Both the position numbers and the translations under genes were made by a program. Shown here in pieces: positions 394 through 14,611 of a stretch of DNA of 17,614 nucleotides. Each line of letters begins with the position of its first letter. Within the stretch, counting starts at the first letter, position 1. The DNA lies in the IMG/VR virus record IMGVR_UViG_2609459833_000015, positions 1 to 17,614 of that record, one strand, 5' to 3'. The notes under the pieces were generated by a model. The model did no database searches and was not told the DNA's origin. It was given only the letters and a program-made list of their open reading frames with translations. Origin of the DNA: a virus. Lineage: Duplodnaviria; Heunggongvirae; Uroviricota; Caudoviricetes.

Positions 394-410
394 CAACTTT
401 CTCCACAAAA

Positions 411-1406
411 TCAGGACAGCACACCAATCGCCAGTGCGCGATCGATAAAACGAAATATCAGCTCCAGTTGGGAACCATACTTATCTTCAAATGCCACGGT
501 ATCCACATGCAGTTCGTCATGGTGTTTTCTGCACAACGGCAACACAAAAAGGTCATGCGCTTTTGTCCCCATACCACCCTGGCCGTGACCAATCAGATGA
601 TGCGGATCATCAGCTGGCTTTCCACAACATGCACACGGCTGCGTCTTAACCCAGCGAGTGTACTTTTCATTAACCCAGCGACGACGTTTGGGGCGTAACA
701 TAAAAGACTCCGGCGACTCCGGATCCACTTTCAGCGCCAGCACCTTTTTCGCTTTATCCCGGATAATACTGGTGGCAGTAACCGAAGGTACAAGGTCACT
801 CTCCCGGGTGACAGACGGCAAAACAGGCTTCGGTAATCTCAGGGCCTTACGGGCTGCACTTTCCGGTAAAGCATCCGCCAGGTCATTACGAACCAGCCAC
901 CAGCACAGTTCCGGCATTGTCACGACGTGACTGTCATCAAAACCAAGATCACGGCGCACAACAGACAACACCCAGCGGGCACAGTTATCCGTTGCCATTG
1001 CTTCCAGCCGTTCCGTGAACTGGTCACGGAGAAGATTGTCACAGTGCCAGCACAGACGGATTGCGCCTGGCGCGTGCCGCATTGTGGTCATGTTCTCGCT
1101 GTGCCAGTCGGAATGAGGCCACTGACAGCCCTTTTCACGAAGTAACCAGCTCTCAAGGCATTCCACGCCACCAGCACGACGGATCACCGCCTCATGGCGG
1201 AACACGGCCCGAACGGCAGGATCATCCGCCAGCGGTTGTGATGATGCCGGAACGGCACCACTGGCAAAAGATGAATAACGTTCCGGCTCAGGCTCCAGCA
1301 GGACACGCCCCTGCATAAACAGGGGCATCAGCTCTGAACCTGGCCTGAACAATACGATCCCCATACGCGGGGCGATTTCAGGGGTCAGTAGTGCTCTCAC
1401 GGTCAC
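411..1406 (-). CDS. DUF968-like prophage protein (YdfU-like) with C-terminal Cys/His-rich motif
   Basis: C-terminal CACCGKPADDPHH...LCRKHHDELH motif recalled from DUF968/YdfU proteins; start uncertain (GTG at 1406 one nt after the KilA-N stop, or ATG at 1364). Confidence 0.55.
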   Translation of the reverse strand: MTVRALLTPEIAPRMGIVLFRPGSELMPLFMQGRVLLEPEPERYSSFASGAVPASSQPLADDPAVRAVFRHEAVIRRAGGVECLESWLLREKGCQWPHSDWHSENMTTMRHAPGAIRLCWHCDNLLRDQFTERLEAMATDNCARWVLSVVRRDLGFDDSHVVTMPELCWWLVRNDLADALPESAARKALRLPKPVLPSVTRESDLVPSVTATSIIRDKAKKVLALKVDPESPESFMLRPKRRRWVNEKYTRWVKTQPCACCGKPADDPHHLIGHGQGGMGTKAHDLFVLPLCRKHHDELHVDTVAFEDKYGSQLELIFRFIDRALAIGVLS

Positions 1407-1407
1407 C

Positions 1408-2223
1408 TCAATGAACGGTATCGAGCAGCTTTAACAGCTCAGGGAATCGGGATTCGAAGAAATGCGGCTGCGTCTCGCGCGGATTTGCAGGACTGGTGAT
1501 GTTCTTGCCGAACATGCAGCCTTTCGCCGTCAGCGACCAGAATTTTTTGATGTTGTTAATCCCGGTACGGCTGTATCGTTCGCGTTGTTCAACGATCCCC
1601 AGCTTCGCCATCTGGTGATATGCCTGATTAGCCGTCAGGCGGATACCATACTGCTTCAGCAGTGCACTCAGCGACAGCGTAGGGCGGCTTGAACCATCTG
1701 GCGCATCAGCAGGTGCATCAATGGCATAGATCGGCATAAGTTCAGGAAGACCAGCTACCTTTGATAATTTCTGGTATGCACCAAGTTTCGAGGAGTTTGA
1801 CAGATTTAGAGTCTTTGCTGCTGATTCAAGCAGAATGACCCCGGATTTAATTTTGTCGGATGTGGTTTCTTCTGGTGATGAATTATGAAGCGCATCAAAA
1901 GTACGTATCACTTTTAAGCTGAATGCCGGGCTGATCCACATTGCATATGCATAGACCAGCTCTTTACAGACATACGTCCCACCATTGCGCCCCTGAATGG
2001 TGATGACAGGAATACTACGGGAATCTCCCGTAGTTTCTTCTTCCAATAATTCCACAAGAGCCTTCGTTTCAGGACGACGCATAAACTCGTGAACTTCCAG
2101 CGAACGGGAGGAGCGATTCTCACCAGCGGCAAGAAGAGCAGCTTTCTGAAGGTCGTTAAGACAGTAGTTAGATTCGAAGTACTGGCGCACAGAAACGCCA
2201 TCAATTACAAGCAACTGATTCAT
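1408..2223 (-). CDS. KilA-N domain protein
   Basis: N-terminal IDGVSVRQYF...QGRNGGTYVCKELVYAYAMWISPAFSLKVI fits the KilA-N consensus; ATG at 2223 with SD GGAG in TTTGTGGAGAAACCA; the track ORF extends to a GTG at 2235. Confidence 0.75.
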   Translation of the reverse strand: MNQLLVIDGVSVRQYFESNYCLNDLQKAALLAAGENRSSRSLEVHEFMRRPETKALVELLEEETTGDSRSIPVITIQGRNGGTYVCKELVYAYAMWISPAFSLKVIRTFDALHNSSPEETTSDKIKSGVILLESAAKTLNLSNSSKLGAYQKLSKVAGLPELMPIYAIDAPADAPDGSSRPTLSLSALLKQYGIRLTANQAYHQMAKLGIVEQRERYSRTGINNIKKFWSLTAKGCMFGKNITSPANPRETQPHFFESRFPELLKLLDTVH

Positions 2224-2385
2224 TGGTTTCTCCACAAATTTTTATCCACGAGCGGGACTGCACTCCCTTTTCGTTGATGCAGGATGAACTTACTGCGATT
2301 TTTAATAGTTATCAAGGATACACTGTTCATAAATACAGTATCTTTAACGAGGTAATACCCAAATTTAGGGTGTTGCTCAATTCCG

Positions 2386-2781
2386 TTACCGAGTTGCTAA
2401 TTTGCAACTCGCTTTTTCGTACTTACTGATAGTGATCTCGACCTTCCCTTCCGGGATAACCGGTCCCCACTCCACCAGCATTCTTTTCACCTGGCTGTCG
2501 TCTTCCCACACACCCGCGTGGGTCAGGGCGTCAAACAGCGCCTTGTTATAGTTGTCCAGATCGCGGATCCGGTTATCCGGAGGAAACAACACGATCTCCA
2601 CTGAAGCAGGTGCCGACGTTGGTTTCGGCAGACGACGTAACTGCTCAACTATTGCTGCACACGCCGCGCTCTGGAATTTTCGCCCCGCCGCGCTTATCAG
2701 GCTCTTACCAGCAAACGCCCCTTTGTTGGGGTGTCGCCAGTACGTGTTCACGCTGGGCGGAAAAGGCAGTATTAGCTTCAT
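2386..2781 (-). CDS. rusA: RusA-family Holliday junction resolvase
   Basis: LPFPPSVNTYWRH...RDLDNYNKALFDALTHAGVWEDDSQV resembles RusA (PPS.N.Y, RDLDN, DD motifs); ATGA overlap with the upstream gene stop. Confidence 0.8.
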   Translation of the reverse strand: MKLILPFPPSVNTYWRHPNKGAFAGKSLISAAGRKFQSAACAAIVEQLRRLPKPTSAPASVEIVLFPPDNRIRDLDNYNKALFDALTHAGVWEDDSQVKRMLVEWGPVIPEGKVEITISKYEKASCKLATR

Positions 2782-3104
2782 ACTTTCAGGCCCCTCTCAT
2801 GTAACCAGTGGGCTGCACGCAGCCTGGCGTTTGCCTCACCGGCAAGCAGGGCGCGGATAATCCCGACCGCCTCGCTGTCGTCGTCCTTCACCGCGGTATG
2901 AAGAGTGATACCCCGGGCCACGCCACGCTTTATCGTGATGACACCTTTTTTCTCCAGTGCGCGAAGATGCTCCACCGCTGCATTCACCGAACGGTATCCC
3001 AGCATGGTTGCCACCTCCTGATTGGTTGGCGGGAAGCCACGTTCTTTCTGATAAGAAATCAGCATATCCAGCACCTGCTGCTGGCATTGAGTTAATGTCG
3101 TCAT
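2778..3104 (-). CDS. LexA N-terminal DNA-binding-domain-only protein (no S24 peptidase domain)
   Basis: LTQCQQQVLDMLISYQKERGFPPTNQEVATMLGYRSVNAAVEHLRALEKKGVI parallels the LexA N-terminal winged helix; only 108 aa; ATGA overlap with the Dam stop. Confidence 0.65.
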   Translation of the reverse strand: MTTLTQCQQQVLDMLISYQKERGFPPTNQEVATMLGYRSVNAAVEHLRALEKKGVITIKRGVARGITLHTAVKDDDSEAVGIIRALLAGEANARLRAAHWLHERGLKV

Positions 3105-3754
3105 GCCGCCATCTCCCTGACCAGTTTTTCCGCCTGCTGGCGAACCTGCGCCAGAAATGCCTCACCACATGCCTCAAGTTCATCGCGCCCGATGTAGCTG
3201 ATTGCCGCTCCCTTCCAGGTCTTGTCGAAAACAGCAATAGCACCAGCGAAGAAAGCACCTGTTGGCACCTGCTTTTCGTCTTTCGGGATAAACCAGGCTG
3301 GCAGTTCAAAACCAATACGCCCGCGAATAAAAGCAATATGATCTGCATCTTCCGGCCACCACACTTCGCTGGTGGCCGCTTTGATCAGGAAAACATAGCG
3401 CCCGCCTTTATCACGCATGGCACTGGCATGCTTCATGATGTAACGCATGCCGGTGATGTATTGTCCCTCATGCTGACTGGCGCGGCTGTACGGGGGATTA
3501 CCAAAGGCAGCACCTTTAAGCTCCGCAAGACGTTCTGACCAGTCATGTGCCAGCGCGTTGTCTTCCGCCGTGTAATACGCGGCACATTTGGCGTTATCAC
3601 CGTCAGTAAACAGATCCAGAACAAACGGGCCAAACAGGGTGTTAATTCCCCAGAAAATGTTGTCCGGCGTGCGCCACTGATCGCCCACTTCCTTCAGTTC
3701 ATGGGCTGGTTTGTTCCGTAGTTCCACCAGCGCCTGGCAATATTTATTACTCAT
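3101..3754 (-). CDS. Phage Dam-type DNA N6-adenine methyltransferase
   Basis: NPPY catalytic motif (GNPPYS) and overall similarity to prophage Dam methylases as recalled; ATG at 3754 overlaps the upstream stop (TAATG); the track ORF extends to 3787. Confidence 0.8.
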   Translation of the reverse strand: MSNKYCQALVELRNKPAHELKEVGDQWRTPDNIFWGINTLFGPFVLDLFTDGDNAKCAAYYTAEDNALAHDWSERLAELKGAAFGNPPYSRASQHEGQYITGMRYIMKHASAMRDKGGRYVFLIKAATSEVWWPEDADHIAFIRGRIGFELPAWFIPKDEKQVPTGAFFAGAIAVFDKTWKGAAISYIGRDELEACGEAFLAQVRQQAEKLVREMAA

Positions 3755-4242
3755 TAAGCCCCCACGTAATTCCCTGACAGATACCACTCATCACCCGCTA
3801 CAGCGCGCTTTCTGCTTTTCCGTAAGCACCGCTCACGACGCGCCAGAAAATTGTTTCGTTCTGGCTGGGAGTGGCTTTCACGGAATGCCGCCATCCACAC
3901 GGTTGCAGCACGACGGTATAAGCCCCTGGACTCCAGTTCTTCCGCCTGGCGGGTCAGGCACAAAATCACCCGGGGATCGTTAGTGCCGACATAGAAATTG
4001 CGCACAGGTATGGTTTCAAGAACAGGTTGCAGTTTCTCCTCCTGCGATATCTCAGCCTGGTGTGGGAAATGTCTGCGTGTTTTCCCTTCACAACAGTGAG
4101 CCACACGGCCACTCTGACGTAACTTGCTTGCTGACTGCAGAACGCACTGTCGTGAGTAACCAGCAAAAGCATCCGCAATGTCACCTGAAGTACACCCCGG
4201 ATGGGCTTCAATGAATTTCTGTACATCGTTCATCAGACTCAT
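3754..4242 (-). CDS. PerC/Pch-like domain protein (possible transcriptional regulator); same length as CPS-53 YfdN as I recall it
   Basis: C-terminal LESRGLYRRAATVWMAAFRE...RRERC resembles the PerC-family core motif; start uncertain (ATG 4242, ATG 4233 or GTG 4248); directly coupled to the O-like gene stop. Confidence 0.45.
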   Translation of the reverse strand: MSLMNDVQKFIEAHPGCTSGDIADAFAGYSRQCVLQSASKLRQSGRVAHCCEGKTRRHFPHQAEISQEEKLQPVLETIPVRNFYVGTNDPRVILCLTRQAEELESRGLYRRAATVWMAAFRESHSQPERNNFLARRERCLRKSRKRAVAGDEWYLSGNYVGA

Positions 4243-4244
4243 GA

Positions 4245-5228
4245 TCACCCCCTGAATCCTGTCGGGATCTGGCTGTAGTCCACGTTGTCGTAACTGGCTT
4301 TGAAGTACGGGTCCTCGCGTCTGGCTGCAGATACCGCAGGAACTTCCCAGGATTCTTCGAAATGACGATCCGGACCAAAGAACGTGACAGCCTGTTTCAC
4401 AAATTGTGTGCCGCTATTGCCCATCGCAGATACCCAGCCCGCGTAGCGTTTCACACCTTCCAGCATGGTTTCGGGGTTTACCCCCTCGTTCAAACGGGCT
4501 TTCCAGGCTTTGAAGGCTGCTGATTTTGAATTGCCACCAGCACGTTTGGGATATTCCTGCCAGGCCTGTTCAAATTCCGGTGAATATTCCTGTCGGGCAG
4601 AACGCGCTGGCGCAGACGCGTCAGCGGATGCATCAATAGTGTTTTTAGTCTCCGTTGTAATCTCTGTAGTAATCTCTGTATTTGTATCAACATTCGGCGT
4701 ATCCCCTGTTCCGTTATGACGTCGGGGGGTGTTCCGTTTTAACGTAATAGCTGTATCGCTGATTGCATTATTGCTGTTACTTTCTGGCGAAACAGAAGAA
4801 GGTGTGGTGATGGCCGCAATTGCCTGTGGGTTGATCCCGACAAACAAAATATTGCTGCATTTCACCCCATCGAGCATTTCCACCGTGCGTAAATCCAGAG
4901 TAATAAACCCTGCATCGCGCAGACGCTTCAGCGCATCTGCGGTTTCCCTTTTCCCGAAACCAAACTGCTCAGCAAACGCCTGGTAGCTTCTTTGCAGTTT
5001 GTCGCCCTGAAAACGCTTGCGATATCCCAGCAACGCTCCGGTGTGCTCATCCCTGACCTCTGTCGGGCGGTACCAGTAAACGATCTCTGAAAGCAGAGCG
5101 ATAGCCGTCGCATCCGGACGCCCACTGGGTAGTCGAATATATTTCCACCAGGTCGCAGGTGTAACATTGCCGGAAATATTAATTTGACCAATAGCCATAA
5201 CTTCCGGTGTGGGGGCGTAACGGCTCAT
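4245..5228 (-). CDS. Replication initiation protein (lambda O-like replisome organiser)
   Basis: Position after cro/CII-like genes; two-domain layout with a repeat-encoding linker (TEITTEITTET, DASADASA); strong SD AGGAGG before ATG 5228; C-terminal region resembles the conserved C-terminus of phage replication proteins. Confidence 0.6.
   Translation of the reverse strand: MSRYAPTPEVMAIGQINISGNVTPATWWKYIRLPSGRPDATAIALLSEIVYWYRPTEVRDEHTGALLGYRKRFQGDKLQRSYQAFAEQFGFGKRETADALKRLRDAGFITLDLRTVEMLDGVKCSNILFVGINPQAIAAITTPSSVSPESNSNNAISDTAITLKRNTPRRHNGTGDTPNVDTNTEITTEITTETKNTIDASADASAPARSARQEYSPEFEQAWQEYPKRAGGNSKSAAFKAWKARLNEGVNPETMLEGVKRYAGWVSAMGNSGTQFVKQAVTFFGPDRHFEESWEVPAVSAARREDPYFKASYDNVDYSQIPTGFRG
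4655..4744. repeat. Iteron-like direct repeats inside the O-like gene (candidate replication origin)
   Basis: Tandem 12-mers GTTGTAATCTCT / GTAGTAATCTCT / GTATTTGTATC (4655-4689), plus TGTTCCGTTATGACG (4707-4721) and TGTTCCGTTTTAACG (4730-4744) 23 bp apart. Confidence 0.4.
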
Positions 5229-5524
5229 ACAACCTCCTTCCGCAGCATGAGAATTGTGTAGCCACGCGCAGGTTGTAGTCTGGCTTTTGCATCAATAGTA
5301 AGCGTTGCAATTTTTCGGATATGAAGATAACCAGCTCTTTCCAGTGCCAGGGTTTCCCTGAATATCGCTTGCTTAGAACAACAGCAGAAATCAGCAAGCA
5401 CCTGATGATCAATAACTCTCTCGCCTTCACCGTCTGAAGAACCCGACATCAAAACACGCAACATAATCAGGCGCTGAATCGGGTTATCGAAAGCACATCC
5501 GCACACAAACTGAAAACAGTTCAC
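5225..5524 (-). CDS. Hypothetical protein, possible helix-turn-helix
   Basis: GTG at 5524 preceded by SD GGGAGGTG; stop overlaps the O-like start (ATGA); no family recognised. Confidence 0.4.
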   Translation of the reverse strand: MNCFQFVCGCAFDNPIQRLIMLRVLMSGSSDGEGERVIDHQVLADFCCCSKQAIFRETLALERAGYLHIRKIATLTIDAKARLQPARGYTILMLRKEVV

Positions 5525-5745
5525 GCCACACCTCCCAGACGCTTAAACATTTTTCCGGAGCAAAAGGCTATAAGCGGCATACTGACGCGGTAATTACGGC
5601 CCAGCGGTTCACAAACCACCTTCTGACATTCACGGTCAACCAGGCTGACACGTAGAACATGCCCTGCAGGCGTGGTGTACCACTGACCAGGACGAGGACA
5701 ACGGAAAGTCTGATTGGTAAACCGTTTGAAAATATTCCGGATCAT
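5521..5745 (-). CDS. Hypothetical small Cys-containing protein
   Basis: ATG 5745 overlaps the Rha stop (ATGA); SD AAGGGGG five nt upstream; 74 aa. Confidence 0.4.
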   Translation of the reverse strand: MIRNIFKRFTNQTFRCPRPGQWYTTPAGHVLRVSLVDRECQKVVCEPLGRNYRVSMPLIAFCSGKMFKRLGGVA

Positions 5746-6287
5746 TTGCGCCCCCTTACCTCTGAAGGGTTCAGCGACAAATTTATGAGACTGGCCAGTA
5801 GCGCCGCGTCGTTGATGCGGTCATACAGACTTACAGCCAGCGGGGATTCGGCTTTTGCCAACATGGGATAAAGCTGCTGCAGCCAGACCTGATGAATTGA
5901 TGAAATGTAGGAATAGAGAACGCTGGCGTTATGTGCAACGTCGCTCAGTACAGAGGGATTTGAAAGCTGTTTCTCCATCTGGTTAAAGGCATTGATGTAT
6001 GCCTCTTTGAACTGGGCAGCACGTTTACCCGTGAAGCCCATGGCAAGAAACGCAAAACCGTCGCGGGTGATTTGATAGCAAGGTAGTTTGCGGCCTGTGC
6101 AATCGGTGTAATCACTCACCGAAAAATTGCGGGAAGTGAATGATGCAGAGCATTCAAGCGTGCGGATCTTTTTCAATACATCGTCATGCTGCTTGCAGAA
6201 ATATTCGGCAACGGCCAAAGAAGAAGTAACAGCCTGACCATCAACGATGGCAATTTCAGGTTGAGTGAGGGTTGGGATCGTAGCCAT
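5742..6287 (-). CDS. Rha-family phage regulatory protein
   Basis: FSVSDYTDCTGRKLPCYQITRDGFAFLAMGFTGKRAAQFKEAYINAFNQME matches the Rha family core as recalled; ATG 6287 with SD GGAGG; the track ORF 5742..6485 has a non-conserved N-terminal extension. Confidence 0.85.
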   Translation of the reverse strand: MATIPTLTQPEIAIVDGQAVTSSLAVAEYFCKQHDDVLKKIRTLECSASFTSRNFSVSDYTDCTGRKLPCYQITRDGFAFLAMGFTGKRAAQFKEAYINAFNQMEKQLSNPSVLSDVAHNASVLYSYISSIHQVWLQQLYPMLAKAESPLAVSLYDRINDAALLASLINLSLNPSEVRGRK

Positions 6288-6487
6288 GATGGCAGCCTCC
6301 GTTGACTGTGGAAAACTTCCACCACCGGAGCTGCGAAACACACAGGTGGCAGACGTACAGGGTTCGCGTACCGGCGTCAACAGACACCGGCGAGCCTTTC
6401 GGCTCCCCTGCACACCCCACCATAATTCTGGAGTGAGGAAACGCGCGCAAAAAAACCGCTGAAGCGTCATATATCGCATTGACAATT

Positions 6488-6883
6488 TCAGGACGCCAAT
6501 CCCGGCACCCGCTTTATAAGGTGCAGAGCAGTGTAACGTCCCGAAATTGCAGAATCAATATGCTGGTGGTCCTTCACACTCAACAAAATCACGCCTGAAT
6601 TTCCACAAAGGACTAAAGCACTCATGCGGGTAGTCTTTGCGAAGATAGATAACGCGCTGTGTTTCTGGCTCCCAACGAATAACATGGACATAAAGCCCTC
6701 TTCCGTCACGAAACCAGCGGTTAAGTTCCTGCACAACTCGCCCCCCACAGTCAGGTAAAGTTCTCTGTGGTTACTTACAGCCAGGTGATTTGGTAATCTG
6801 CATTCATGCCGTAACAACAGGTGTTCAGCGACGCTGACCACCAGCTGTTGCGACAAACGGTTATTTGCCGTTAAACTATTCAT
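6488..6883 (-). CDS. Hypothetical protein
   Basis: ATG 6883 overlaps the upstream stop (ATGA); SD GGAG in TGTGGAGAAACTAACGC; no family recognised. Confidence 0.35.
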   Translation of the reverse strand: MNSLTANNRLSQQLVVSVAEHLLLRHECRLPNHLAVSNHRELYLTVGGELCRNLTAGFVTEEGFMSMLFVGSQKHSALSIFAKTTRMSALVLCGNSGVILLSVKDHQHIDSAISGRYTALHLIKRVPGLAS

Positions 6884-7494
6884 GCGTTAGTTTCTCCACA
6901 ACCAGAAGCAATCGACGCCACGACGCCCGGAGCTGCACACTCGCGGGCGTTACTATTTTCTGGAGCGCAGAAGATTTTGTAGACCAGTGCTGCATGCTCC
7001 TGGAGCTTCGAAATTGAGAGGTACAGCTCGTCGTTAATTGCTGTCTTCTCATGCGGTTCCACTACACCGTCTTCGATTGCTGAACGAATCTGTCTGGAAT
7101 AACTGCCGATCTGTTCAATGACTTCCAGCAGACGCTGGTTAATATCGGCGTTGTCCACATCCTCGACGTCAGGAAGAGACACAAAGACGCCATTTGCAGA
7201 CTGCGCCACAGCGTCAGCAATGAAGTGAGTTCCACCAGCACGTTGTAAAATCATTGCCCATCCCAGCGGGAAAATCTGATCGCCATCGGCACGAAGGCGA
7301 TTGAATAAAGCGTTCTCTGTTACATCCAGCCAGTCAGCTGCTTCAGCGTAACCACCCGGCAACGCTGCGATAGTTTTTCTGACAGCTTTCACGTACCACT
7401 CAGGCTGTTTTTCTACTTTCCAGTGATGCTTACCCACGGTTAGCCTCATCGTTCTGTGGTTTCTGTTAATCGATTTATCCATTAGATTTTTCAT
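6880..7494 (-). CDS. Putative CII-like lysogeny regulator (CP76/YdaT-like)
   Basis: Immediately downstream of the cro-like gene; LDVTENALFNRLRADGDQIFPLGWAMIL region resembles phage regulatory CII (CP76) proteins as recalled; start ambiguous (ATG 7494, 7482 or 7449; the track ORF starts at GTG 7551 and overlaps cro). Confidence 0.45.
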   Translation of the reverse strand: MKNLMDKSINRNHRTMRLTVGKHHWKVEKQPEWYVKAVRKTIAALPGGYAEAADWLDVTENALFNRLRADGDQIFPLGWAMILQRAGGTHFIADAVAQSANGVFVSLPDVEDVDNADINQRLLEVIEQIGSYSRQIRSAIEDGVVEPHEKTAINDELYLSISKLQEHAALVYKIFCAPENSNARECAAPGVVASIASGCGETNA

Positions 7495-7675
7495 AAAGCT
7501 CAGGTTTAAATGGCAACCGTCCGCAAGTTCTATATGCAGCTTCTGCTGCACGTCCTTTTGGAATTAACTGGCCCGGACGGTTTCGCCACTGATAAACGGC
7601 TTCAGTTGTTATGCCGAAAAAAGCAGCAACTTTCTCAATACTGCCGAAGTAGCTTTCGATATCGTCAGTTGTCAT
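7475..7675 (-). CDS. Cro-like HTH regulator (YdaS/Cro family)
   Basis: 66 aa; HTH VAAFFGITTEAVYQWRNR; divergent from the CI repressor; SD GGAGGG before ATG 7675. Confidence 0.7.
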   Translation of the reverse strand: MTTDDIESYFGSIEKVAAFFGITTEAVYQWRNRPGQLIPKGRAAEAAYRTCGRLPFKPELYEKSNG

Positions 7676-7772
7676 ACGCCCTCCAAACTAAGTTTTATTA
7701 GATGCTAATTACAAATCTATCTTTGGTCAATAAAAACTAAGATTACTTAGCAATTCAAGAAATGGTGCTCCT
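7676..7772. promoter_or_regulatory. Immunity-region divergent promoter/operator region (PR-like leftward, PRM-like rightward)
   Basis: 97-bp AT-rich spacer between divergent cro-like and CI genes; minus-strand TTGACC (complement of 7725-7730) with a possible TAGCAT -10; AACTAAG at 7686-7692 and 7735-7741, and inverted CTAAG-N4-CTTAG at 7737-7750. Confidence 0.55.
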
Positions 7773-8399
7773 ATGGAAACGGTTGGTCAGCGTATAAAAG
7801 CTCTGAGAAGAGTTACCGGAACGTCCCAGAAAGAATTGGGTAAATTTTGTGGAGTAAGCGACGTTGCTGTGGGGTACTGGGAGAAAGACATCAATACCCC
7901 TGGTGGGGAGGCACTTTCGAAATTAGCGAAGTTCTTCAATACGTCAATAGATTACATTCTTTATGGTGCTGAGTTTGAAGGCAAACTCGTCACAAACATG
8001 CGCAGAGTTCCTGTAATATCGTGGGTTCAGGCTGGGCAGTTTACTGAGTGCAGGGCAGCAGAAGTGTTTAGTGAAGTGGACAAGTGGGTAGATACATCAT
8101 TAAAGATTGGTGATAACTCATTTGCATTAGAGGTTAAAGGTGACTCCATGACTAACCCTAATGGCCTCCCAACAATACCAGAAGGCGCAACAGTGATTGT
8201 AGATCCAGATGCAGAACCTCGTCATGGAAAAATAGTCATCGCTCGACTTGATGGAACAAACGAAGCTACAGTAAAAAAATTAGTCATCGATGGCCCTCAA
8301 AAGTTTTTAGTGCCATTAAATCCTCGGTATCCCAACATCCCTATCAATGGTAATTGCCTTATCATTGGTGTAGTCAAAGGAGTTCAATACGAACTCTAA
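7773..8399 (+). CDS. CI-like repressor (XRE-family HTH N-terminus, S24 LexA-like peptidase C-terminus)
   Basis: N-terminal HTH QKELGKFCGVSDVAVGYWE; C-terminal GDSM Ser-nucleophile motif and downstream Lys; 208 aa; divergent from cro-like gene. Confidence 0.85.
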   Translation: METVGQRIKALRRVTGTSQKELGKFCGVSDVAVGYWEKDINTPGGEALSKLAKFFNTSIDYILYGAEFEGKLVTNMRRVPVISWVQAGQFTECRAAEVFSEVDKWVDTSLKIGDNSFALEVKGDSMTNPNGLPTIPEGATVIVDPDAEPRHGKIVIARLDGTNEATVKKLVIDGPQKFLVPLNPRYPNIPINGNCLIIGVVKGVQYEL

Positions 8400-8605
8400 G
8401 ACCTCTCTTCTCTAACTAAGGCACCGAACTAAGAAAAGTTTGGTGTTTTCTCTTGCCATAATAACTAAGTTAAGTTAGATTTTATATCAAAGATAACGAA
8501 CAGGCAGGACGCCCACGAAGTAGCCGCCTGGGGCATATGAAGTCCAGGATGATTCGTTGAGTCATGTTGTGCCACCAGGCACTCATGTTAAAGCAGGTGT
8601 ATGAA

Positions 8606-8881
8606 ATGAAAGTCCAGATTTTAAACAATAACTGTGAAGTCGTTTGGTCATACGACATAGCCGCCCCTGTAGATCAGAGCGGCGATAGCTGGACCAATGG
8701 GAAACATCAGATTATGGCTGGAGTTGTGTTCTCTTTACGCCGTGCTTTGGAACAGGCTGAAGTATTTCCATCAGACCCTGAATGGAAATGGCCTTTTTCT
8801 ATTTGTCCAAATTCGGAGAGCACATTTCAGAAAATTGGTCAGAAAGTCGCACTCGAAGAGCATCAGCCAACTGTTTCCTGA
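8606..8881 (+). CDS. Hypothetical protein (first ORF downstream of CI)
   Basis: ATG 8606 with SD AGGTG six nt upstream; 91 aa, acidic, Trp-rich; 3' end overlaps the convergent ORF 8799..9044 by 83 bp and contains a plus-strand hairpin plus T-run. Confidence 0.35.
   Translation: MKVQILNNNCEVVWSYDIAAPVDQSGDSWTNGKHQIMAGVVFSLRRALEQAEVFPSDPEWKWPFSICPNSESTFQKIGQKVALEEHQPTVS
8764..8798 (+). terminator. Candidate intrinsic terminator (plus strand)
   Basis: ATTTCCAT (8764-8771), 10-nt loop, ATGGAAAT (8782-8789), then GGCC and TTTTT (8794-8798); AU-rich stem so likely weak. Confidence 0.3.
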
Positions 8882-9044
8882 TTTTTTCAGGTAACTCGTC
8901 GGCATCGCAGAAACAACAACGCTCGATCATGTTGAAAGCCGATTCGTAGAACTGTTTCTGCTGAGTGTCGCTGAGACAGGAAAAGAGCGACGTTACGATG
9001 ATTTTATTAATTGCATTATCAAGTTCTTTTTCATCAAAAGTCAT
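8799..9044 (-). CDS. Hypothetical protein (convergent to CI)
   Basis: ATG 9044 with SD AAGGA seven nt upstream; 81 aa with helical-looking hydrophilic composition; no family recognised. Confidence 0.4.
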   Translation of the reverse strand: MTFDEKELDNAINKIIVTSLFSCLSDTQQKQFYESAFNMIERCCFCDADELPEKIRKQLADALRVRLSDQFSEMCSPNLDK

Positions 9045-9284
9045 TTGATTTTCCTTTTATGTATACGGGCTTAAAAGGATACCACCGAGCCTGAAGTGGT
9101 GAAAAGACAGGCACATAACAGCTAAGTATTTTCAACCAAAGAGAATCCTTAGCGTTGTGGTGAATGCGGCTCAGCGCACGCGGGTTAAGGTTGAGGCTGA
9201 CAGTCGACCTTCTGTGGATACCCACCCGTCTGGTGTGCAACCTTCGCCAGGCACCGGGAGGCACCCGGCACCACAACTTTATGC

Positions 9285-9344
9285 TGTGTGTAGTCCTGGC
9301 GGTACCAGTTTGTACCCTTGCTTCCGGCTGGTACCGTCCTTTTT
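9285..9344 (+). ncRNA. DicF-like small RNA candidate ending in an intrinsic terminator
   Basis: 11-bp stem GGCGGTACCAG (9298-9308) paired with CTGGTACCGTC (9328-9338) followed by TTTTT (9340-9344); 5' arm GGCGGUACCAGUUUGUACCC closely resembles the DicF segment GGCGGUAUCAGUUUUACUCC as I recall it; 5' end not determinable. Confidence 0.45.
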
Positions 9345-9481
9345 ACAAAACAGAGAAGAGCATCACCGGACGACGGGCTCATAACCCAATCCATCCGGGC
9401 GGCAGTCACCGCAGGTGTTCTTCTCTGTTTTGTGGAGAAACTAACCGACCTTGCAGGGTCGATATGATGAGGAGCAGCAAA

Positions 9482-9844
9482 ATGGCTAGCGAACGCAGTA
9501 CTGATGTGCAGGCATTTATCGGGGAGCTGGACGGCGGCGTATTTGAAACCAAAATCGGCGCAGTTCTCAGTGAAGTCGCTTCCGGTGTGATGAACACGAA
9601 AACCAAAGGTAAGGTCTCACTCAACCTGGAAATCGAACCATTTGATGAGAACCGTGTGAAAATCAAACACAAACTCTCATATGTTCGCCCGACTAACCGC
9701 GGGAAAATTTCCGAAGAAGACACCACCGAAACGCCGATGTATGTCAATCGCGGTGGTCGCCTGACTATTCTGCAGGAAGACCAGGGACAATTACTGACTC
9801 TTGCCGGTGAACCTGACGGAAAACTCCGCGCAGCAGGTCATTAA
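9482..9844 (+). CDS. YfdP-like prophage protein
   Basis: 120 aa from ATG 9482 (SD GAGGAG 9469-9474), matching YfdP length and position upstream of YfdQ/R-like genes; alternative start ATG 9464. Confidence 0.5.
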   Translation: MASERSTDVQAFIGELDGGVFETKIGAVLSEVASGVMNTKTKGKVSLNLEIEPFDENRVKIKHKLSYVRPTNRGKISEEDTTETPMYVNRGGRLTILQEDQGQLLTLAGEPDGKLRAAGH

Positions 9845-9909
9845 TATCGTTCTTAATTAACTGATTATTTATCTCATCACTGAATATCTTAATATAGTGA
9901 GGACTTATT

Positions 9910-10734
9910 ATGTCTCAGAACTTAGACGCAACCGCAATTAATCAAATCCATGCCCTTATTTCTGCTCAGGGTGTTAATGAAATTATCAGTAAGATTGGTG
10001 CCGATGCTGTGGCATTGCCTGAGAATTTCCGCATTCATGATCTGGAAAAATTTAATTTAAATCGCTTCCGTTTCCGTGGTGCGCTTTCCACTGCCAGCAT
10101 CGATGACTTTACCCGTTATTCTAAAGATCTTGCAGATGAAGGCACCCGCTGCTTTATCGATGCCGATAATATGCGTGCCATCAGTGTGCTTAACCTGGGT
10201 ACTATTGATGAACCAGGTCACGCAGATAACACCGCCACTCTCAAACTGAAAAAGACAGCACCGTTCTCTGCCCTGCTGTCTGTTAATGGCGAGCGTAACT
10301 CCCAGAAGTCACTGGCAGAATGGATTGAAGACTGGGCCGACTATCTTGTGGGCTTTGATGCTAATGGTGACTCTATTAAGGCAACAAAAGCGGCTGCGGC
10401 AGTCCGTAAAATCACGATTGAAGCAAACCAGACCGCTGATTTTGAAGATAATGACTTCAGCGGCAAACGCTCTTTGATGGAGTCTGTCGAAGCGAAAACC
10501 AAAGACATTATACCAGTAGCATTTGAGTTTAAATGCGTTCCGTTTGAAGGCCTGAAAGAACGTCCGTTTAAATTACGCCTCAGCATTATCACTGGCGATC
10601 GTCCTGTACTGGTTCTGCGCATTATTCAGCTGGAAGCAGTGCAGGAGGAAATGGCTAACGAATTTCGTGATCTGCTTGTTGAGAAATTCAAAGACAGCAA
10701 AGTAGAAACCTTTATTGGTACTTTCACCGCCTGA
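9910..10734 (+). CDS. YfdQ-like prophage protein
   Basis: 274 aa, the length I recall for CPS-53 YfdQ; immediately followed by an HD-domain YfdR-like gene; SD GAGGA before ATG 9910. Confidence 0.55.
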
Positions 10735-10861
10735 TTTCATTACTGCAAATGCCCCTGCGGGGGCATTTATGGAAACGTAATTAACTCAATAATCACCGGA
10801 TGGTGAGGGCTTCCTTTTACCCAAATTCAGCGCGGTGCAGCGCATATACGTGGAGAACAAA

Positions 10862-11398
10862 ATGTCATTTATTAAAACTTTTTCCGGGAAGCATTTTTAT
10901 TATGACAAGATAAATAAAGATGACATCGTTATTAACGATATCGCGGTTTCCCTTTCAAATATCTGTCGCTTTGCCGGTCATCTTTCTCACTTCTACAGCG
11001 TCGCCCAACATGCGGTGCTTTGCAGCCAGCTGGTGCCGCAGGAATTTGCTTTTGAAGCGTTAATGCATGATGCAACAGAAGCGTATTGCCAGGACATCCC
11101 AGCTCCACTGAAACGCCTTCTTCCTGACTATAAACGGATGGAAGAAAAAATAGACGCCGTAATCCGTGAGAAATACGGGTTACCTCCTGTTATGAGCACG
11201 CCAGTGAAATATGCCGATCTCATTATGCTGGCAACCGAACGTCGCGATCTCGGGCTTGATGATGGCTCTTTCTGGCCTGTACTGGAAGGTATCCCGGCGA
11301 CAGAGATGTTCAAAGTTATTCCACTGTCACCAGGCCATGCCTACGGGATGTTTATGGAACGTTTTAACGAGTTATCGGAGTTACGCAAATGCGCATGA
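10862..11398 (+). CDS. HD-domain phosphohydrolase (YfdR-like 5'-deoxynucleotidase)
   Basis: HD signature (VAQHAV ... LMHDATE); 178 aa from ATG 10862 with SD GGAG; the track ORF begins at an upstream GTG (10835). Confidence 0.7.
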   Translation: MSFIKTFSGKHFYYDKINKDDIVINDIAVSLSNICRFAGHLSHFYSVAQHAVLCSQLVPQEFAFEALMHDATEAYCQDIPAPLKRLLPDYKRMEEKIDAVIREKYGLPPVMSTPVKYADLIMLATERRDLGLDDGSFWPVLEGIPATEMFKVIPLSPGHAYGMFMERFNELSELRKCA

Positions 11399-11751
11399 AT
11401 GTTTTCGAAATGGAAGGGTTTCTTCGCGGGAAATGTGTACCACGAGATCTGAAAGTGAATGAAACAAATGCTGAGTACCTGGTACGTAAATTCGATGCGC
11501 TTGAAGCTAAATGTGCGGCACTGGAAAACAAAATAATACCAGTGTCAGCTGAACTGCCGCCAGCAAATGAAAGTGTTCTGTTATTTGATGCTAATGGAGA
11601 AGGCTGGCTAATTGGCTGGCGTTCTCTCTGGTACACCTGGGGACAAAAAGAAACCGGAGAATGGCTGTGGACATTTCAGGTCGGGGACCTTGAAAACGTC
11701 AATATCACTCACTGGGCAGTAATGCCGAAAGCACCGAAGAATAAAAAATGA
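11389..11751 (+). CDS. DUF551-like protein (YfdS-like)
   Basis: 120 aa; C-terminal GWLIGWRSLWYTW...THWAVMP resembles the DUF551 domain; SD GGAG eight nt before ATG 11389; overlaps the YfdR-like stop. Confidence 0.55.
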   Translation: MRMNVFEMEGFLRGKCVPRDLKVNETNAEYLVRKFDALEAKCAALENKIIPVSAELPPANESVLLFDANGEGWLIGWRSLWYTWGQKETGEWLWTFQVGDLENVNITHWAVMPKAPKNKK

Positions 11752-11951
11752 GCGTGATAAAAACTCATACAGGAATTGTTATCACCCGAGACGGTCCGCA
11801 GGTAAAAAAACTGCACCAGACAAAGCGGATGTGGGTCGTCGGAAAAAACGAGTTTTACCACAAAGAAACCGGACGCCGCCACTTTGCAGAAAATACTCGC
11901 CGCCGACTGCTGATCGATACCATCAAGCCTATCGAGGTGAAGCATGTTTAA
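11748..11951 (+). CDS. Hypothetical small protein (67 aa)
   Basis: ATGA overlap with the upstream stop; basic small protein; no family recognised. Confidence 0.4.
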   Translation: MSVIKTHTGIVITRDGPQVKKLHQTKRMWVVGKNEFYHKETGRRHFAENTRRRLLIDTIKPIEVKHV

Positions 11952-12183
11952 ACAGAACGAAAAATCTATCGCTCAAATTGCTGAGTATATCCCGCGTGCG
12001 TGCCGGGATATGCAGTTGCAGGAAGCCAAAGCACGCCTGGAGAAAAAAATTGCGCTCTATATCGATGACGGCTGTGATGCCGCCGTTCTTAACGCGGCGT
12101 TCGCGCCAGCTCTTAACAGTCATACGCGAAAGTCTTTTTTTTCGTGCATCACAGCGCAGATCCGTAAAGGAGGCAACCAGTGA
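11944..12183 (+). CDS. Hypothetical small protein (79 aa)
   Basis: SD GAGGTG (11934-11939) before ATG 11944; stop overlaps the next gene's GTG start. Confidence 0.45.
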   Translation: MFKQNEKSIAQIAEYIPRACRDMQLQEAKARLEKKIALYIDDGCDAAVLNAAFAPALNSHTRKSFFSCITAQIRKGGNQ

Positions 12184-12995
12184 GCAACATTAACTATCAG
12201 GTACTGCGTGAAAAGGCAGAGAAAGCAACTAAAGGAAGCTACATCGTAGGGCATACATCTGTTAACCAACACGGCAATTTAACAGGAGTTTTTGTTTGTC
12301 AAAAATGGAAAGGAGAACCCGGTGGCGTAATTGCAGAATGTCACGTTAACTGCCTGGTTGAAACAGATGCTCAGGCTTATGCAAACGCTGAATTCATAGC
12401 AGAGGCTAACCCGGCTACCGTGCTGGCACTGCTGGATGAACGGGAAAGAAACCTGCAATACATCAAAAGCCGCGATCAGGAGAACGAGGATATTGCGCTA
12501 ACGGTAGGGAAGCTGAGAGTTGAGCTTGAGGAAGTAAAACAACACGCTGAAGAATTATCCGAAACCAAGGCTGTTCGTAACCAATGGCGGCCAGATATTT
12601 GCCCAATAACCGGACGTGCATTTTTCATGTGGATTGAGCATCCAACATTGGGAAATGTGCCGACATATGGTGGCCCATTAGATAGTTACACCATTCCAAC
12701 AAAGGACGGTGACGGTGAGTTTTCATGTGAGCGTTACGATCATGATTTTGGCGGTTGGGTAGAAAGCGAATGTCTTGGGTTATATCTGATTGATGATAGA
12801 GAACAATGCAGGGTCTACGAACTGGAGGAACGCGTTAAGGAACTGGATGCTCGGGAAATATCGCTCCCGGAACGTAGCAGCATGCTTCATCGAACAGATT
12901 TTCACGATGATTACCAAACGGTAATGGCATACAAAGTTTCTGAAGTCATCGCTGCAATCCGCGCCGCAGGCATTCGCATCAAAGGAGGTGAGTAA
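12180..12995 (+). CDS. Ead/Ea22-like protein
   Basis: GTG start with strong SD AGGAGG; central coiled-coil-like region and Trp/Cys-rich C-terminal half typical of Ea22-like prophage proteins as recalled. Confidence 0.55.
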   Translation: MSNINYQVLREKAEKATKGSYIVGHTSVNQHGNLTGVFVCQKWKGEPGGVIAECHVNCLVETDAQAYANAEFIAEANPATVLALLDERERNLQYIKSRDQENEDIALTVGKLRVELEEVKQHAEELSETKAVRNQWRPDICPITGRAFFMWIEHPTLGNVPTYGGPLDSYTIPTKDGDGEFSCERYDHDFGGWVESECLGLYLIDDREQCRVYELEERVKELDAREISLPERSSMLHRTDFHDDYQTVMAYKVSEVIAAIRAAGIRIKGGE

Positions 12996-13171
12996 TGCGT
13001 GTGGCATGTATCGGCTTGTTACCGTACCCGACTCGTTTTTGGGCTTCTGCGCTAATTGCAAAGCCACATGTCCTGATGGCTGACAACATCATCCCGGCAC
13101 CAAAGCGCCGCCATACCGGTATTGCAGCGGCACGACGAGCAGCAAAGAAACGCAGGAGAACAAAACGATGA
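12995..13171 (+). CDS. Small basic protein (58 aa; not in the ORF track because below its apparent 60-aa cutoff)
   Basis: ATG 12995 overlaps the Ea22-like stop (TAATG) with SD AGGAGGTG; stop overlaps the next ATG (ATGA); C-terminus AAARRAAKKRRRTKR. Confidence 0.4.
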   Translation: MRVACIGLLPYPTRFWASALIAKPHVLMADNIIPAPKRRHTGIAAARRAAKKRRRTKR

Positions 13172-13350
13172 AAAACCGTAAGGCAAAAATTCTGTTAGCT
13201 CGCAGAAACGGTGTTGGGGTCTGGCGATGGTTGAGGATTAGTAACAGACGAGTGAGGTTGACGGGGTGTTGCGGGGTGATGGGGCACAGTTGTTGCAAAA
13301 AGCCTAGCGCGTCACAGAACAGGCGGAAGAAAGGGTACGCAGTAAGATGA
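13168..13350 (+). CDS. Small Arg/Trp-rich protein, paralogue A (60 aa)
   Basis: Shares MKNRKAK, WLR(I/V)SNRRV(R/V)L and SA(S/A)QNR blocks with the next ORF; conserved residues use different synonymous codons (aga vs cgc, cga vs cgt). Confidence 0.5.
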   Translation: MKNRKAKILLARRNGVGVWRWLRISNRRVRLTGCCGVMGHSCCKKPSASQNRRKKGYAVR

Positions 13351-13538
13351 AAAACCGTAAAGCAAAGATGCTTATCTCCCGTGTATACAGACGTTGCTAT
13401 CCCAGCCAGTGGTTGAGAGTTAGCAATCGCCGTGTGGTGTTGTACTTATATTCTGGAATTGCCAGAGAGGGAATCAAAGATAAGCGCAGCGCGGCGCAAA
13501 ACCGCTGGAAAAACCACTTACGCACTAAAGGAGCCTGA
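13347..13538 (+). CDS. Small Arg/Trp-rich protein, paralogue B (63 aa)
   Basis: Tandem paralogue of 13168..13350 with an in-frame 3-nt indel; ATGA overlap with the upstream stop. Confidence 0.5.
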   Translation: MKNRKAKMLISRVYRRCYPSQWLRVSNRRVVLYLYSGIAREGIKDKRSAAQNRWKNHLRTKGA

Positions 13539-13539
13539 T

Positions 13540-13749
13540 ATGGCTATTTCCGCAAGTTACACCATGCATCTCTACTGTGATTGTTGCCAGTGTACAAATG
13601 GTAAATATCAAACGCCAGACTTCGGTGAGTATATCGGTACGTCATGGGCTGGCTGTGCAAAAGAGGCGCGCAAGGATGGCTGGCGAATAAGCAAAGACAA
13701 AACACGTGCTTTTGCGCCCGGGCATAAAGTTTTGAGGATTAATAAATGA
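13540..13749 (+). CDS. Small Cys-rich protein (69 aa; possible metal-binding CxCCxC)
   Basis: ATG 13540 with SD AGGAG; HLYCDCCQC motif; the track ORF 13432..13749 has an N-terminal extension overlapping the previous gene. Confidence 0.45.
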   Translation: MAISASYTMHLYCDCCQCTNGKYQTPDFGEYIGTSWAGCAKEARKDGWRISKDKTRAFAPGHKVLRINK

Positions 13750-14195
13750 CCACTATTACCAGAGAAAACGCGGAAATTAAATCATTCATCACTGGTTTCC
13801 TGAGCGACCCGGCGCACGATAACCAATCTTCAAGCAGCCTGCTTGCCAATGTGTTTCGTATCGCACTGGCATCGTTGGAAGCAGAGCCAGTCGCGTGGCG
13901 ATATCGCTACGTGAAAAAAGGTGTTACGGACTCTCAGGGGGATTCGTGGGTTGGTGACTGGAAATATGTACCGACAAAAGAGGATTGCAACGACAGACCG
14001 AACTATGAAATTCAGGCGTTATTCACTGCCCCGCCTGTGCCACTGACATCAGAAGGATTGATTAAAGCAGTGCGTTTCTATGAACAGGTTAAGCGTGAAA
14101 ATCCGCCAGTCGAAACCGGAGCATGGAAAGACGCTGTTGACTGGGTACTCAAAGAGGCTTGCCAGGCTGTAAACATTGGCATCAAAGGAGAGTGA
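13746..14195 (+). CDS. Hypothetical protein (149 aa)
   Basis: ATGA overlap with the upstream stop; SD GAGGA; shares an N-terminal module (RIALASLEAEPV) with the 14612..15556 gene. Confidence 0.5.
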   Translation: MTTITRENAEIKSFITGFLSDPAHDNQSSSSLLANVFRIALASLEAEPVAWRYRYVKKGVTDSQGDSWVGDWKYVPTKEDCNDRPNYEIQALFTAPPVPLTSEGLIKAVRFYEQVKRENPPVETGAWKDAVDWVLKEACQAVNIGIKGE

Positions 14196-14196
14196 T

Positions 14197-14418
14197 ATGG
14201 CTAACTCATTACTTGAAACCTGCAACAACTAGCAGATTCAGAGGGCGGAGATTTTATCTCGCAATCCAGATATGGCAATGACAATTGATAACCTGGATAC
14301 GCTAATTGAACGGACCGTGCGTTCTGCAATTGATATAGCACATCGAGTAGATTGGGATTTCAGAGAAGCGGAGCGACTCGCTAAAGAGCAGGCGAAAGCA
14401 GCGGGTAAAGGAGAGTGA
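14197..14418 (+). pseudogene. Small gene interrupted by an in-frame amber codon (TAG 14230-14232)
   Basis: ATG 14197 sits behind the same AAAGGAGAGTGATATG cassette used by the neighbouring gene; the frame runs 11 codons, TAG, then 61 more codons ending GKGE-stop at 14416-14418 directly coupled to the next gene. Confidence 0.35.
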
Positions 14419-14419
14419 T

Positions 14420-14608
14420 ATGTCACTGACGGTGAGGCAATTAATCAGCAAGCTCAGAAAAATGCCTCCTGAGGCTGTCGTGGTCTGGCAGGGCTATGAA
14501 CAATCAGAGTGTGAGTATAACGACTTTGTAGGTCATGTTGCTGATATTACAGATGAAAATTCATCATCCTTTGACCCAGAAGTGCGCGTTGTGGCGCTAA
14601 GAGGATAA
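14420..14608 (+). CDS. Hypothetical small protein (62 aa)
   Basis: SD AAAGGAGAG before ATG 14420. Confidence 0.45.
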   Translation: MSLTVRQLISKLRKMPPEAVVVWQGYEQSECEYNDFVGHVADITDENSSSFDPEVRVVALRG

Positions 14609-14611
14609 CCC

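Follow-up and report, generated by a model that had tools for sequence, protein, structure and literature searches.

What do prophages carry beside their repressor gene, and do the two small, convergent and overlapping open reading frames (ORFs) found at this position in one lambdoid prophage belong to a single system? Genes in this position have proved to be a source of exclusion and defence functions, and they are usually handled ORF by ORF. We addressed this question in a stretch of DNA of 17,614 nucleotides (nt) from a virus of the Caudoviricetes (IMG/VR record IMGVR_UViG_2609459833_000015, positions 1 to 17,614; hereafter the window). The window represents an SfV-like lambdoid prophage, with 99.3% identity to phage SfV over positions 8495-9100 and 100% identity to E. 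coli H1827/12 over positions 8400-9140. In our comparisons the two ORFs, which we call P and M, emerged as one conserved two-gene accessory cassette that extends approximately from 8595 to 9112, that is, from the start of P to the predicted promoter of M. Two ORFans that had been annotated alternately are one co-inherited unit, and its architecture predicts opposite expression states for the two genes.

Both ORFs carry the signature of protein-coding genes

Gene P lies on the plus strand (8606-8881, 91 amino acids), from an ATG at 8606 to a stop codon at 8879-8881, and its Shine-Dalgarno sequence AGGTG (8595-8599) is located 6 nt 5' of the ATG. It belongs to phrog_3195, the family of SfV orf33. 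Gene M lies on the minus strand (8799-9044, 81 amino acids), from an ATG at 9044 to a stop codon at 8799-8801, and faces the early-left promoter pL. It belongs to phrog_3311, and its Shine-Dalgarno sequence AAGGA (9052-9056, minus strand), which is part of an invariant AAGGAAA, is located 7 nt 5' of the ATG. The genes overlap at their 3' ends by 83 base pairs (bp; 8799-8881). A first-pass annotation of the window had listed the coordinates of both ORFs, their Shine-Dalgarno sites, the 83-bp overlap and their place next to the cI repressor gene, and all of these were as described when we re-read the sequence. Upstream starts are possible for P (ATG at 8564 or 8585; SfV orf33 has 98 amino acids); the start MKVQ, which corresponds to 8606, is common to all P homologues.

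Is only one of these ORFs a gene and the other its antisense shadow? The first-pass annotation had suspected that one ORF may be spurious, and annotators do disagree about this locus: the SfV record and the Prokaryotic Genome Annotation Pipeline (PGAP) call P alone (as orf33 or 'hypothetical'), whereas the records of vB_EcoM-720R4 and SKA5 call M alone. Chance ORFs of this size are not uncommon, and the case for both was therefore built on evolutionary evidence. In the part of the unit that belongs only to P, divergence at codon positions 1, 2 and 3 of the P frame was 0.278, 0.178 and 0.459, with a ratio of non-synonymous to synonymous change (pN/pS) of 0.34. The corresponding values for the M frame in the part that belongs only to M were 0.236, 0.191 and 0.548, with a pN/pS of 0.28, while the remaining frames, mirror-image frames excluded, gave a pN/pS of 0.9-1.7. 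The Shine-Dalgarno sequences of both ORFs are kept in every lineage while the flanking sequence varies: that of P appears as GAGG, AGGA or AAGGA at equal distance in all lineages, and that of M (TTTCCTT on the plus strand) is invariant across 8 aligned sequences from 5 lineages. A true shadow at this locus looks different. When P is extended antisense over M, as in the 122-amino-acid versions proposed by gene callers, pN/pS is 1.35; by this measure the extension is an antisense shadow, and the selected part of P stops near residue 86. Since the private region of each ORF has its own codon-position signature, a low pN/pS and a conserved Shine-Dalgarno sequence, we consider it highly improbable that either is the shadow of the other. 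The suspicion of a spurious ORF did not survive these results and the strict co-conservation described below; judged by the purifying selection that acts on each, both P and M are real protein-coding genes. The annotation can be corrected correspondingly: both genes are real, and the 98-, 105- and 122-amino-acid versions of P are over-extended.

We also analyzed the region in which the two genes meet. A hypervariable stretch (8798-8818, nt 193-213 of the module), which encodes P residues 65-71 and the C-terminal tail of M with its variable stop, has a mean pairwise divergence of 0.495, versus approximately 0.31 in the rest of the unit. It is followed by the core of the coding overlap (8819-8863; P codons 72-86, M codons 61-76), where divergence is 0.242, the lowest among the named segments of the unit, and where the wobble bias is gone. 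Here, the variability at M codon position 3 is 0.30, versus 0.55 in the M-only part, and that at P position 3 is 0.18, versus 0.46 in the P-only part. Over these 15 codons in five lineages, the pattern is consistent with constraint on both frames. The conserved core of P comprises residues 1-64, and its C-terminal helix is kept up to the sequence VALEE (ending at residue 85) in five lineages. In all module loci the P frame extends 83-160 nt into M before it reaches a stop, even where the tail is not conserved (window, 8799-8881; locus L105, 3188-3327; locus L114, 2688-2803), and in no lineage is there a stop in the unconstrained linker ahead of M. Chance may explain this, or it may be that translation of P into the end of M matters in itself.

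P and M are inherited together with a fixed geometry

P and M were found together in all of the approximately nine lineages examined, among them lineages from E. coli, Salmonella, Klebsiella and Yersinia. A first set consists of the lineages of the window with L002 and L016, of L004 with L010, of L006 with L022 and L020, of L009, and of L018 with L023; a more distant set consists of L107, of L105 with L106, of L114 and of L115. The pairing was not apparent from the first protein search, which retrieved only near-identical or frameshifted relatives of M, and for this reason M at first looked spurious. For P, it retrieved full-length relatives at about 49-69% identity, and the DNA of each of these P loci contained an open minus-strand ORF encoding an M homologue with 59-63% identity. 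A profile search with M then retrieved called M proteins in Salmonella, Klebsiella and Yersinia (56-64% identity), each of them at a locus with an uncalled P. Both genes are likewise present in the four distant lineages, where they converge and overlap; in L105 and L114, P is conserved only over approximately 64 N-terminal residues, and the Cys motif of M is lost. Across the approximately nine lineages protein identity falls to roughly 30-50%, and the immunity backgrounds differ. No locus with only P or only M occurred among the matches of the P and M protein and profile searches. Whether related prophages keep either ORF had been left as a question in the first-pass annotation, and both turned out to be conserved. 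The geometry is conserved as well: the ATG codons of P and M are 439 nt apart, with zero indels, in five lineages whose nucleotide identity is 64-70%.

One could argue that P and M are two independent morons that happen to abut, with the overlap resulting from genome compaction. The site that they occupy is a hot spot with many unrelated fillings (see below), and chance can hold the P frame open into M, with a stop probability that we estimate at about 5% per codon junction. This explanation does not account, however, for the presence of both genes in approximately nine lineages, in varied immunity backgrounds and on both sides of a leader RNA, for their ungapped spacing in five lineages, or for the lack of P-only and M-only loci among the search matches, and we regard it as quite improbable.

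M is occasionally broken. A scan of viral contigs returned only copies with a P identical to that of the window, a set that served only to assess the integrity of M. Among the 80 contigs, M was intact in 76 and frameshifted in 3; scans of genome contigs gave no matches. In one genome (L016), M carries a nonsense codon while P is intact. Locus L107 (3001-3579) presents another variation, as its P domain is fused behind a domain of approximately 80 amino acids (phrog_9419/2151-like), which elsewhere is a separate small gene just 3' of the cassette (for example, L009, 4572-4772). This fusion is a hint that P acts with another early-left protein.

The cassette is located in the CI-repressed early-left operon

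The position next to cI had been likened to the slot in which lambda carries rexAB. In lambda, rexA and rexB are non-essential genes that adjoin cI and are expressed in the lysogen. They have the orientation of cI, occupy the interval from cI to pL and are transcribed together with cI from pRM. In the window, the cI-type repressor gene (7773-8399, plus strand) encodes HTH_3 and Peptidase_S24 domains (PF01381, 1.1e-10; PF00717, 9.2e-28), with a divergent cro gene (P22_Cro) at 7475-7675. The repressor gene is followed on the plus strand by an intrinsic terminator (8418-8452), which consists of a 13-bp stem and the sequence TTTTCTC (-15.1 kcal/mol); a terminator is annotated at the same relative place 3' of cI in the SfV record. 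Next comes a pL-type early-left promoter (8453-8481, plus strand), identified in a promoter scan by the hexamers TTGCCA and TAGATT separated by 17 nt. Its spacer carries a copy of the CI operator: the repeat at 8458-8478 matches the two repeats of the right operator (7681-7701 and 7730-7750). In position weight matrix scans, pL scored 11.7, similar to the 12.3 of pR. Since a terminator and an operator-bearing pL separate cI from the two ORFs, the pair is placed inside the CI-repressed early-left operon, and the comparison with rexAB does not hold. The orientation of M on the opposite strand and the lack of RexA or RexB matches in Pfam, PHROG and PADLOC point in the same direction. By its sequence position, P is the first ORF of this operon, the place of lambda N.

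The pL transcript would begin with a structured leader RNA (8495-8558, plus strand), which forms the left border of the slot and lies outside the P/M cassette. A promoter-like sequence also lies before the same conserved leader in six other immunity types, ending 8-10 nt 5' of it, and it is because this spacing from a promoter-like -10 recurs in at least six immunity types that we interpret the block as the 5' leader of the pL transcript. BLAST searches revealed that the block is kept in more than 1,900 E. coli genomes and in many phages, including phages of Salmonella, Klebsiella, Yersinia, Pectobacterium, Providencia and Aeromonas. The leader has approximately 64 nt, and RNAalifold identified 17 base pairs, 8 of them with compensatory changes; in the Klebsiella lineage, the outer stem is wholly re-written. 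No Rfam family matched it. The leader also resembles putL of HK022, an element that acts as an RNA-only antiterminator (PMC9378689), in place and size, although the shared strings are short only (ACGAAC and CAGGAUGA). We therefore list 8495-8558 as a candidate put-like element.

P thus shares with lambda N and HK022 Nun its position as the first ORF after pL, behind a structured leader at the putL place. We rejected P as an N-like antiterminator: only the position fits, and P lacks an Arg-rich motif, has an isoelectric point (pI) of 4.95 and is absent from the sister prophages of CFT073 and J3, which share the cI, the leader and the downstream genes. As these sisters have the same backbone, P is not required for early-left expression.

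Downstream of the cassette, the next plus-strand elements of the operon are an STnc100-like region, yfdP, yfdQ and yfdR, in the direction of xis and int. Rac-, Qin- and lambda-like relatives also have P as the first gene to follow the repressor, oriented like kil, gam, exo and int. In Yersinia, the cassette is located between pL and the leader, whereas in the window it is located 3' of the leader. The occurrence of the cassette on either side of the leader indicates that it is a mobile unit separate from it.

A predicted promoter at a conserved position precedes M

Beyond M on the right, neither the window nor its relatives showed a minus-strand gene, and M therefore needs its own promoter within 9045-9140. 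We predict this promoter, P_M, at 9076-9103 on the minus strand. It comprises the -35 sequence TTCACC (9103-9098), a 16-nt spacer and the extended -10 sequence TGgTATCCT, with the TG at 9084-9083 and the hexamer at 9081-9076; transcription would start near 9069, giving a 5' untranslated region of approximately 25 nt. P_M lies in the conserved right end of the cassette (9076-9112), 31 nt from the M ATG in the window. When the 140 nt upstream of M were scanned with the position weight matrix, this was the best sigma70-like site in 9 of the 10 module-bearing loci (6 of 7 lineages), at a constant aligned place 31-48 nt from the ATG; L105 had its best site elsewhere. An equivalent promoter site also precedes ymfI in the e14 prophage of E. 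coli K-12. The argument for P_M lies in this positional conservation, because its score alone is unremarkable. With scores of 11.7 and 9.1, pL is predicted to be the stronger of the two promoters.

The spacer of P_M contains an inverted repeat, ACCAC-N10-GTGGT (9081-9100), which marks the right border of both the cassette and the slot. The repeat shows compensatory changes in L009 (ACCGCT/AGCGGT) and L018 (ACCACGC/GCGTGGT), and it has counterparts in L004-L023, L107 and L017, as well as before unrelated cargo such as e14 ymfI. We rejected it as an intrinsic terminator: on the minus strand the T-run comes before the repeat, and on the plus strand the repeat runs into an A-run. A protein could bind this site, or it could form a hairpin in the RNA made from pL.

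We found no convincing minus-strand terminator between M and pL (8800 to 8490). On the plus strand, the first-pass annotation had pointed to a hairpin followed by a T-run at 8764-8798. The structure exists in the window (-10.5 kcal/mol, an energy reached by 1.8% of shuffles), but its role as a terminator was not supported, as the stem is not kept in the four other lineages, where the homologous segments fold differently and more weakly, and the T-run consists of the conserved Trp-Pro-Phe codons TGG CCT TTT. From this pattern we treat the hairpin and its T-run as a probable by-product of coding.

P and M are soluble proteins of two uncharacterized families

P matched phrog_3195 over residues 1-91 (3.8e-65) and M matched phrog_3311 over residues 1-81 (1.2e-55), both labelled 'unknown function' in PHROG. 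The distant members also match these family profiles (M of L107, 1.9e-22; M of L105, 1.4e-7; P0064-P0068, 1e-14 to 1e-26). The P family is small: an exhaustive HMMER profile search of 1.84e9 representatives yielded 17 relatives, all of the same family. Neither P nor M has a relative in Pfam, NCBIfam or PADLOC, where their distant members and the other cargo proteins of the slot also yielded no usable match, and profile searches of the PDB with P and M gave chance-level matches only. Both proteins are acidic (pI 4.95 for P and 4.56 for M) and predicted to be soluble, without a hydrophobic segment; the maximum 19-residue hydropathy of M is 0.80. AlphaFold2 modelled M as a three-helix bundle with moderate confidence (predicted local distance difference test score, pLDDT, 68) and only generic structural neighbours. 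The first-pass annotation had recognized neither protein, and profile searches and structure prediction likewise led to no characterized family. We considered whether the CCxC motif of M binds a metal and rejected this, as one Cys is left in L105 and none in L114. No functional study came up in our literature searches on SfV orf33, ECs1072 and modules of this kind.

The same slot carries other genes facing pL

The slot between the leader and the right-end element holds unrelated inserts in related prophages, and is thus a hot spot. All seven fillings carry a gene that faces pL, and three of the seven are convergent overlapping pairs. Besides P and M, these pairs are ymfJ/ymfI of K-12 e14, with a 63-bp overlap, and a 68-amino-acid ORF with an ECs1072-family gene, with a 29-bp overlap; the other fillings are single minus-strand genes of 170, 167, 171 and 63 amino acids. 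The cargo of e14 (ymfJ/ymfI), J3 and CFT073 was considered as homologous to P and M and rejected by BLASTP. In the J3 and CFT073 loci (L014 and L015, 2600-2700), a GC hairpin comes after the leader, and then a perfect rrn-type boxA, GCTCTTTAACAA. This boxA occurs in the single-minus-gene and ECs1072-pair fillings, and the filling of the window lacks it. The L014/L015 hairpin with its T-run reads, on the minus strand, as a terminator of the cargo gene.

The e14 slot is the closest parallel in a standard strain. As with P and M, it follows a cI homologue (ymfK), a pL and the same leader RNA. Within it, ymfJ (plus strand, 102 amino acids) is convergent with ymfI (minus strand, 113 amino acids), the same element, promoter and inverted repeat, lies in front of ymfI, and an STnc100-like region, annotated as ymfH, comes after. 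The ymfJ and ymfI sequences have no similarity to P and M, and the parallel is one of architecture only. Published data indicate that ymfJ is induced late in the SOS response together with ymfM and intE, as are other e14 genes repressed by CI, with a log2 change of +4.8 versus +2.0 for ymfI (PMC11002266), and RNA sequencing of K-12 placed ymfI-ymfJ and sieB-ydaF among convergent transcript overlaps (PMC12288877). For the reciprocal expression predicted for P and M, these records on ymfJ/ymfI, a non-homologous pair, are indirect evidence.

A second positional parallel is found in Rac, in which racR and, after it, the small early-left genes ydaG and ydaF all converge on sieB (4-bp overlap), and kilR comes next. 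In the Salmonella locus L004, P and M directly precede KilR, which is the place of sieB in Rac. SieB is a membrane protein of approximately 160-190 amino acids. Like Rac sieB, M lies within the early-left region and points toward pL, but it is an 81-amino-acid soluble, acidic, helical protein with no SieB-family match, no homology and no membrane character. YdaF and YdaG are not among the 17 relatives of P.

A model for mutually exclusive expression of P and M

How would such a cassette work? Judging from the placement of the promoters, expression of one gene is probably restricted to the dormant prophage and that of the other to the time after induction. Our model suggests that in the lysogen, where pL is shut by CI, only M would be made, from its own weaker promoter. 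M-sense transcription, which lacks a convincing terminator, would run antisense through P, the leader and pL. On loss of CI, or on infection, the stronger pL would fire and P would be made first; pL transcription would then proceed head-on through M and P_M, switching M off by collision and by RNA duplex formation. In the last and weakest steps of the model, M would be a small acidic cytoplasmic effector of the lysogenic state, for example in exclusion or as an inhibitor of a host or phage protein, and P would be an antagonist or partner of M, specific to induction or infection, that spares the phage its own lysogen-state function. We inferred these two roles from the strict co-inheritance and the sieB-like position, and the soluble, acidic nature of both proteins fits binder or inhibitor roles. 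Taken as a whole, with M as the lysogen-state effector, P as its induction-specific antagonist and the two as a mutually exclusive, excludon-type pair, we assign the model a probability of roughly 0.45. An exclusion or antisense-type two-gene module, as the first-pass annotation had proposed, is still the best reading.

The likeness to excludons deserves a comment. Since the ORFs overlap by 83 bp, any full-length mRNAs of P and M must overlap, and excludons are convergent units whose transcripts overlap and whose expression is mutually exclusive (PMC12288877). P and M are likewise convergent, and their predicted promoters face each other, the stronger one lytic and the weaker one presumably active in the lysogenic state. 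P and M differ in that their overlap includes coding sequence of both genes and in that the proteins are co-inherited as a unit. Interference between convergent promoters is also known from pR and pL of coliphage 186. The cassette does not conform to the classical toxin-antitoxin types: both partners encode conserved soluble proteins of 76-91 amino acids, which does not fit type I, in which a small hydrophobic peptide is paired with a non-coding antisense RNA, and the genes are convergent, not co-directional within an autoregulated operon, and matched no toxin or antitoxin in Pfam, NCBIfam or PADLOC, which does not fit type II.

The same anatomy would fit the reverse polarity, in which P is a harmful early takeover protein and M its antidote in the lysogen, where the M transcript silences leaky P; the cassette would then guard the lysogen against leakiness of pL or act as an addiction module. 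As there is no convincing minus-strand terminator between 8800 and 8490, the M-sense RNA would be antisense to all of P and its Shine-Dalgarno sequence. The early-left neighbours in related loci include the host-killing KilR and Lambda_Kil, and the two genes are strictly co-conserved. However, L016 and 3 of the 80 loci combine a broken M with an intact P, which one would not expect if M were required to withstand P (although repression by CI may suffice there), neither protein resembles a toxin or antitoxin family, the convergent arrangement is unlike that of type II operons, and P, as a soluble acidic protein of 91 amino acids, is unlike type I toxins. We consider the reverse polarity a minority possibility.

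Another explanation is that transcription is itself the function. P_M would send polymerase against pL, damping basal early-left expression and steadying lysogeny, and the two proteins would have separate, unlinked accessory roles. The promoters do face each other approximately 580 bp apart, the promoter element is kept before unrelated minus-strand cargo in e14 and other fillings, and a gene faces pL in every filling. This proposal nevertheless leaves unexplained the fixed pairing of P with M over approximately nine lineages and the pN/pS of 0.28 for M. In addition, the single-gene fillings have a minus-strand terminator just before the leader, so that antisense transcription would not reach pL. 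To us, it appears rather unlikely.

Several observations weigh against the model in which M is the effector and P its antagonist. Neither protein has a homology or fold match to an exclusion, defence, toxin or antitoxin protein, and the AlphaFold2 model of P (pLDDT 44) is unusable. The e14 and Rac parallels are positional only, as the sequences are unrelated. P_M is a consensus-level prediction, whose score was reached by 185 of 2000 shuffles (9%). L105 and L114, the two most distant lineages, do not conserve the P tail opposite M, and dual coding of the overlap is therefore not universal. M is broken in a few otherwise intact copies, and is thus dispensable at least in the short term. Finally, the interaction or antagonism between P and M, as well as their expression states, are deduced from architecture. 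The anatomy of the cassette is much more certain than its function.

Convergent overlapping units and repressor-adjacent accessory genes are already known kinds. As far as the literature we searched goes, this pair, its co-conservation with a fixed geometry, its overlap with partial dual coding and the shared-promoter slot that ymfJ/ymfI occupy as well have not been described. If M is a lysogen-state effector and P its antidote, a small protein pair would be added to the repertoire of phage-host conflict, and further pairs could be sought by a rule that combines a gene facing pL with the first ORF of pL. As the same slot, leader and antisense promoter hold ymfJ/ymfI in K-12, the idea is directly testable in a standard strain. 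A broader and more doubtful extension is that this slot, in many enterobacterial lambdoid and Rac-like prophages including e14, is a docking site for two-state cassettes. Each cassette might combine a lysogen effector expressed from the shared antisense promoter with an induction-specific antagonist encoded head-on, and P and M might be the founding pair of co-evolving defence and self-immunity genes (or of host control and release). The on/off logic could then be set by the overlapping convergent genes, without a regulator protein. We regard this extension as more speculative than the model for P and M.

Other features of the region

Additional features were observed around the cassette. In the Salmonella locus L004, a second accessory insertion (2552-3706) between the repressor gene and P/M encodes a 384-amino-acid protein with an HSDR_N domain, a restriction-endonuclease-like N-terminal domain. 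Just 3' of the cassette in the window, positions 9132-9347 (plus strand) gave a sub-threshold match to STnc100 (39.5 bits against a gathering score of 47; E value 1.2e-5). PGAP annotates this segment as a 'frameshifted hypothetical protein', and its counterpart in K-12 e14 is annotated as the protein ymfH. From the sequence match, these protein calls are more likely mis-annotations of an STnc100-like RNA region. On the other side of the immunity region, positions 6342-6524 (minus strand) carry a tandem of isrK (54.3 bits) and C4 antisense RNA (65.1 bits), both above the gathering score. This pair is located upstream of a Rha-type regulatory gene (approximately 5742-6290, minus strand), the known layout of antirepressor control of the P1/P7 and Gifsy types.

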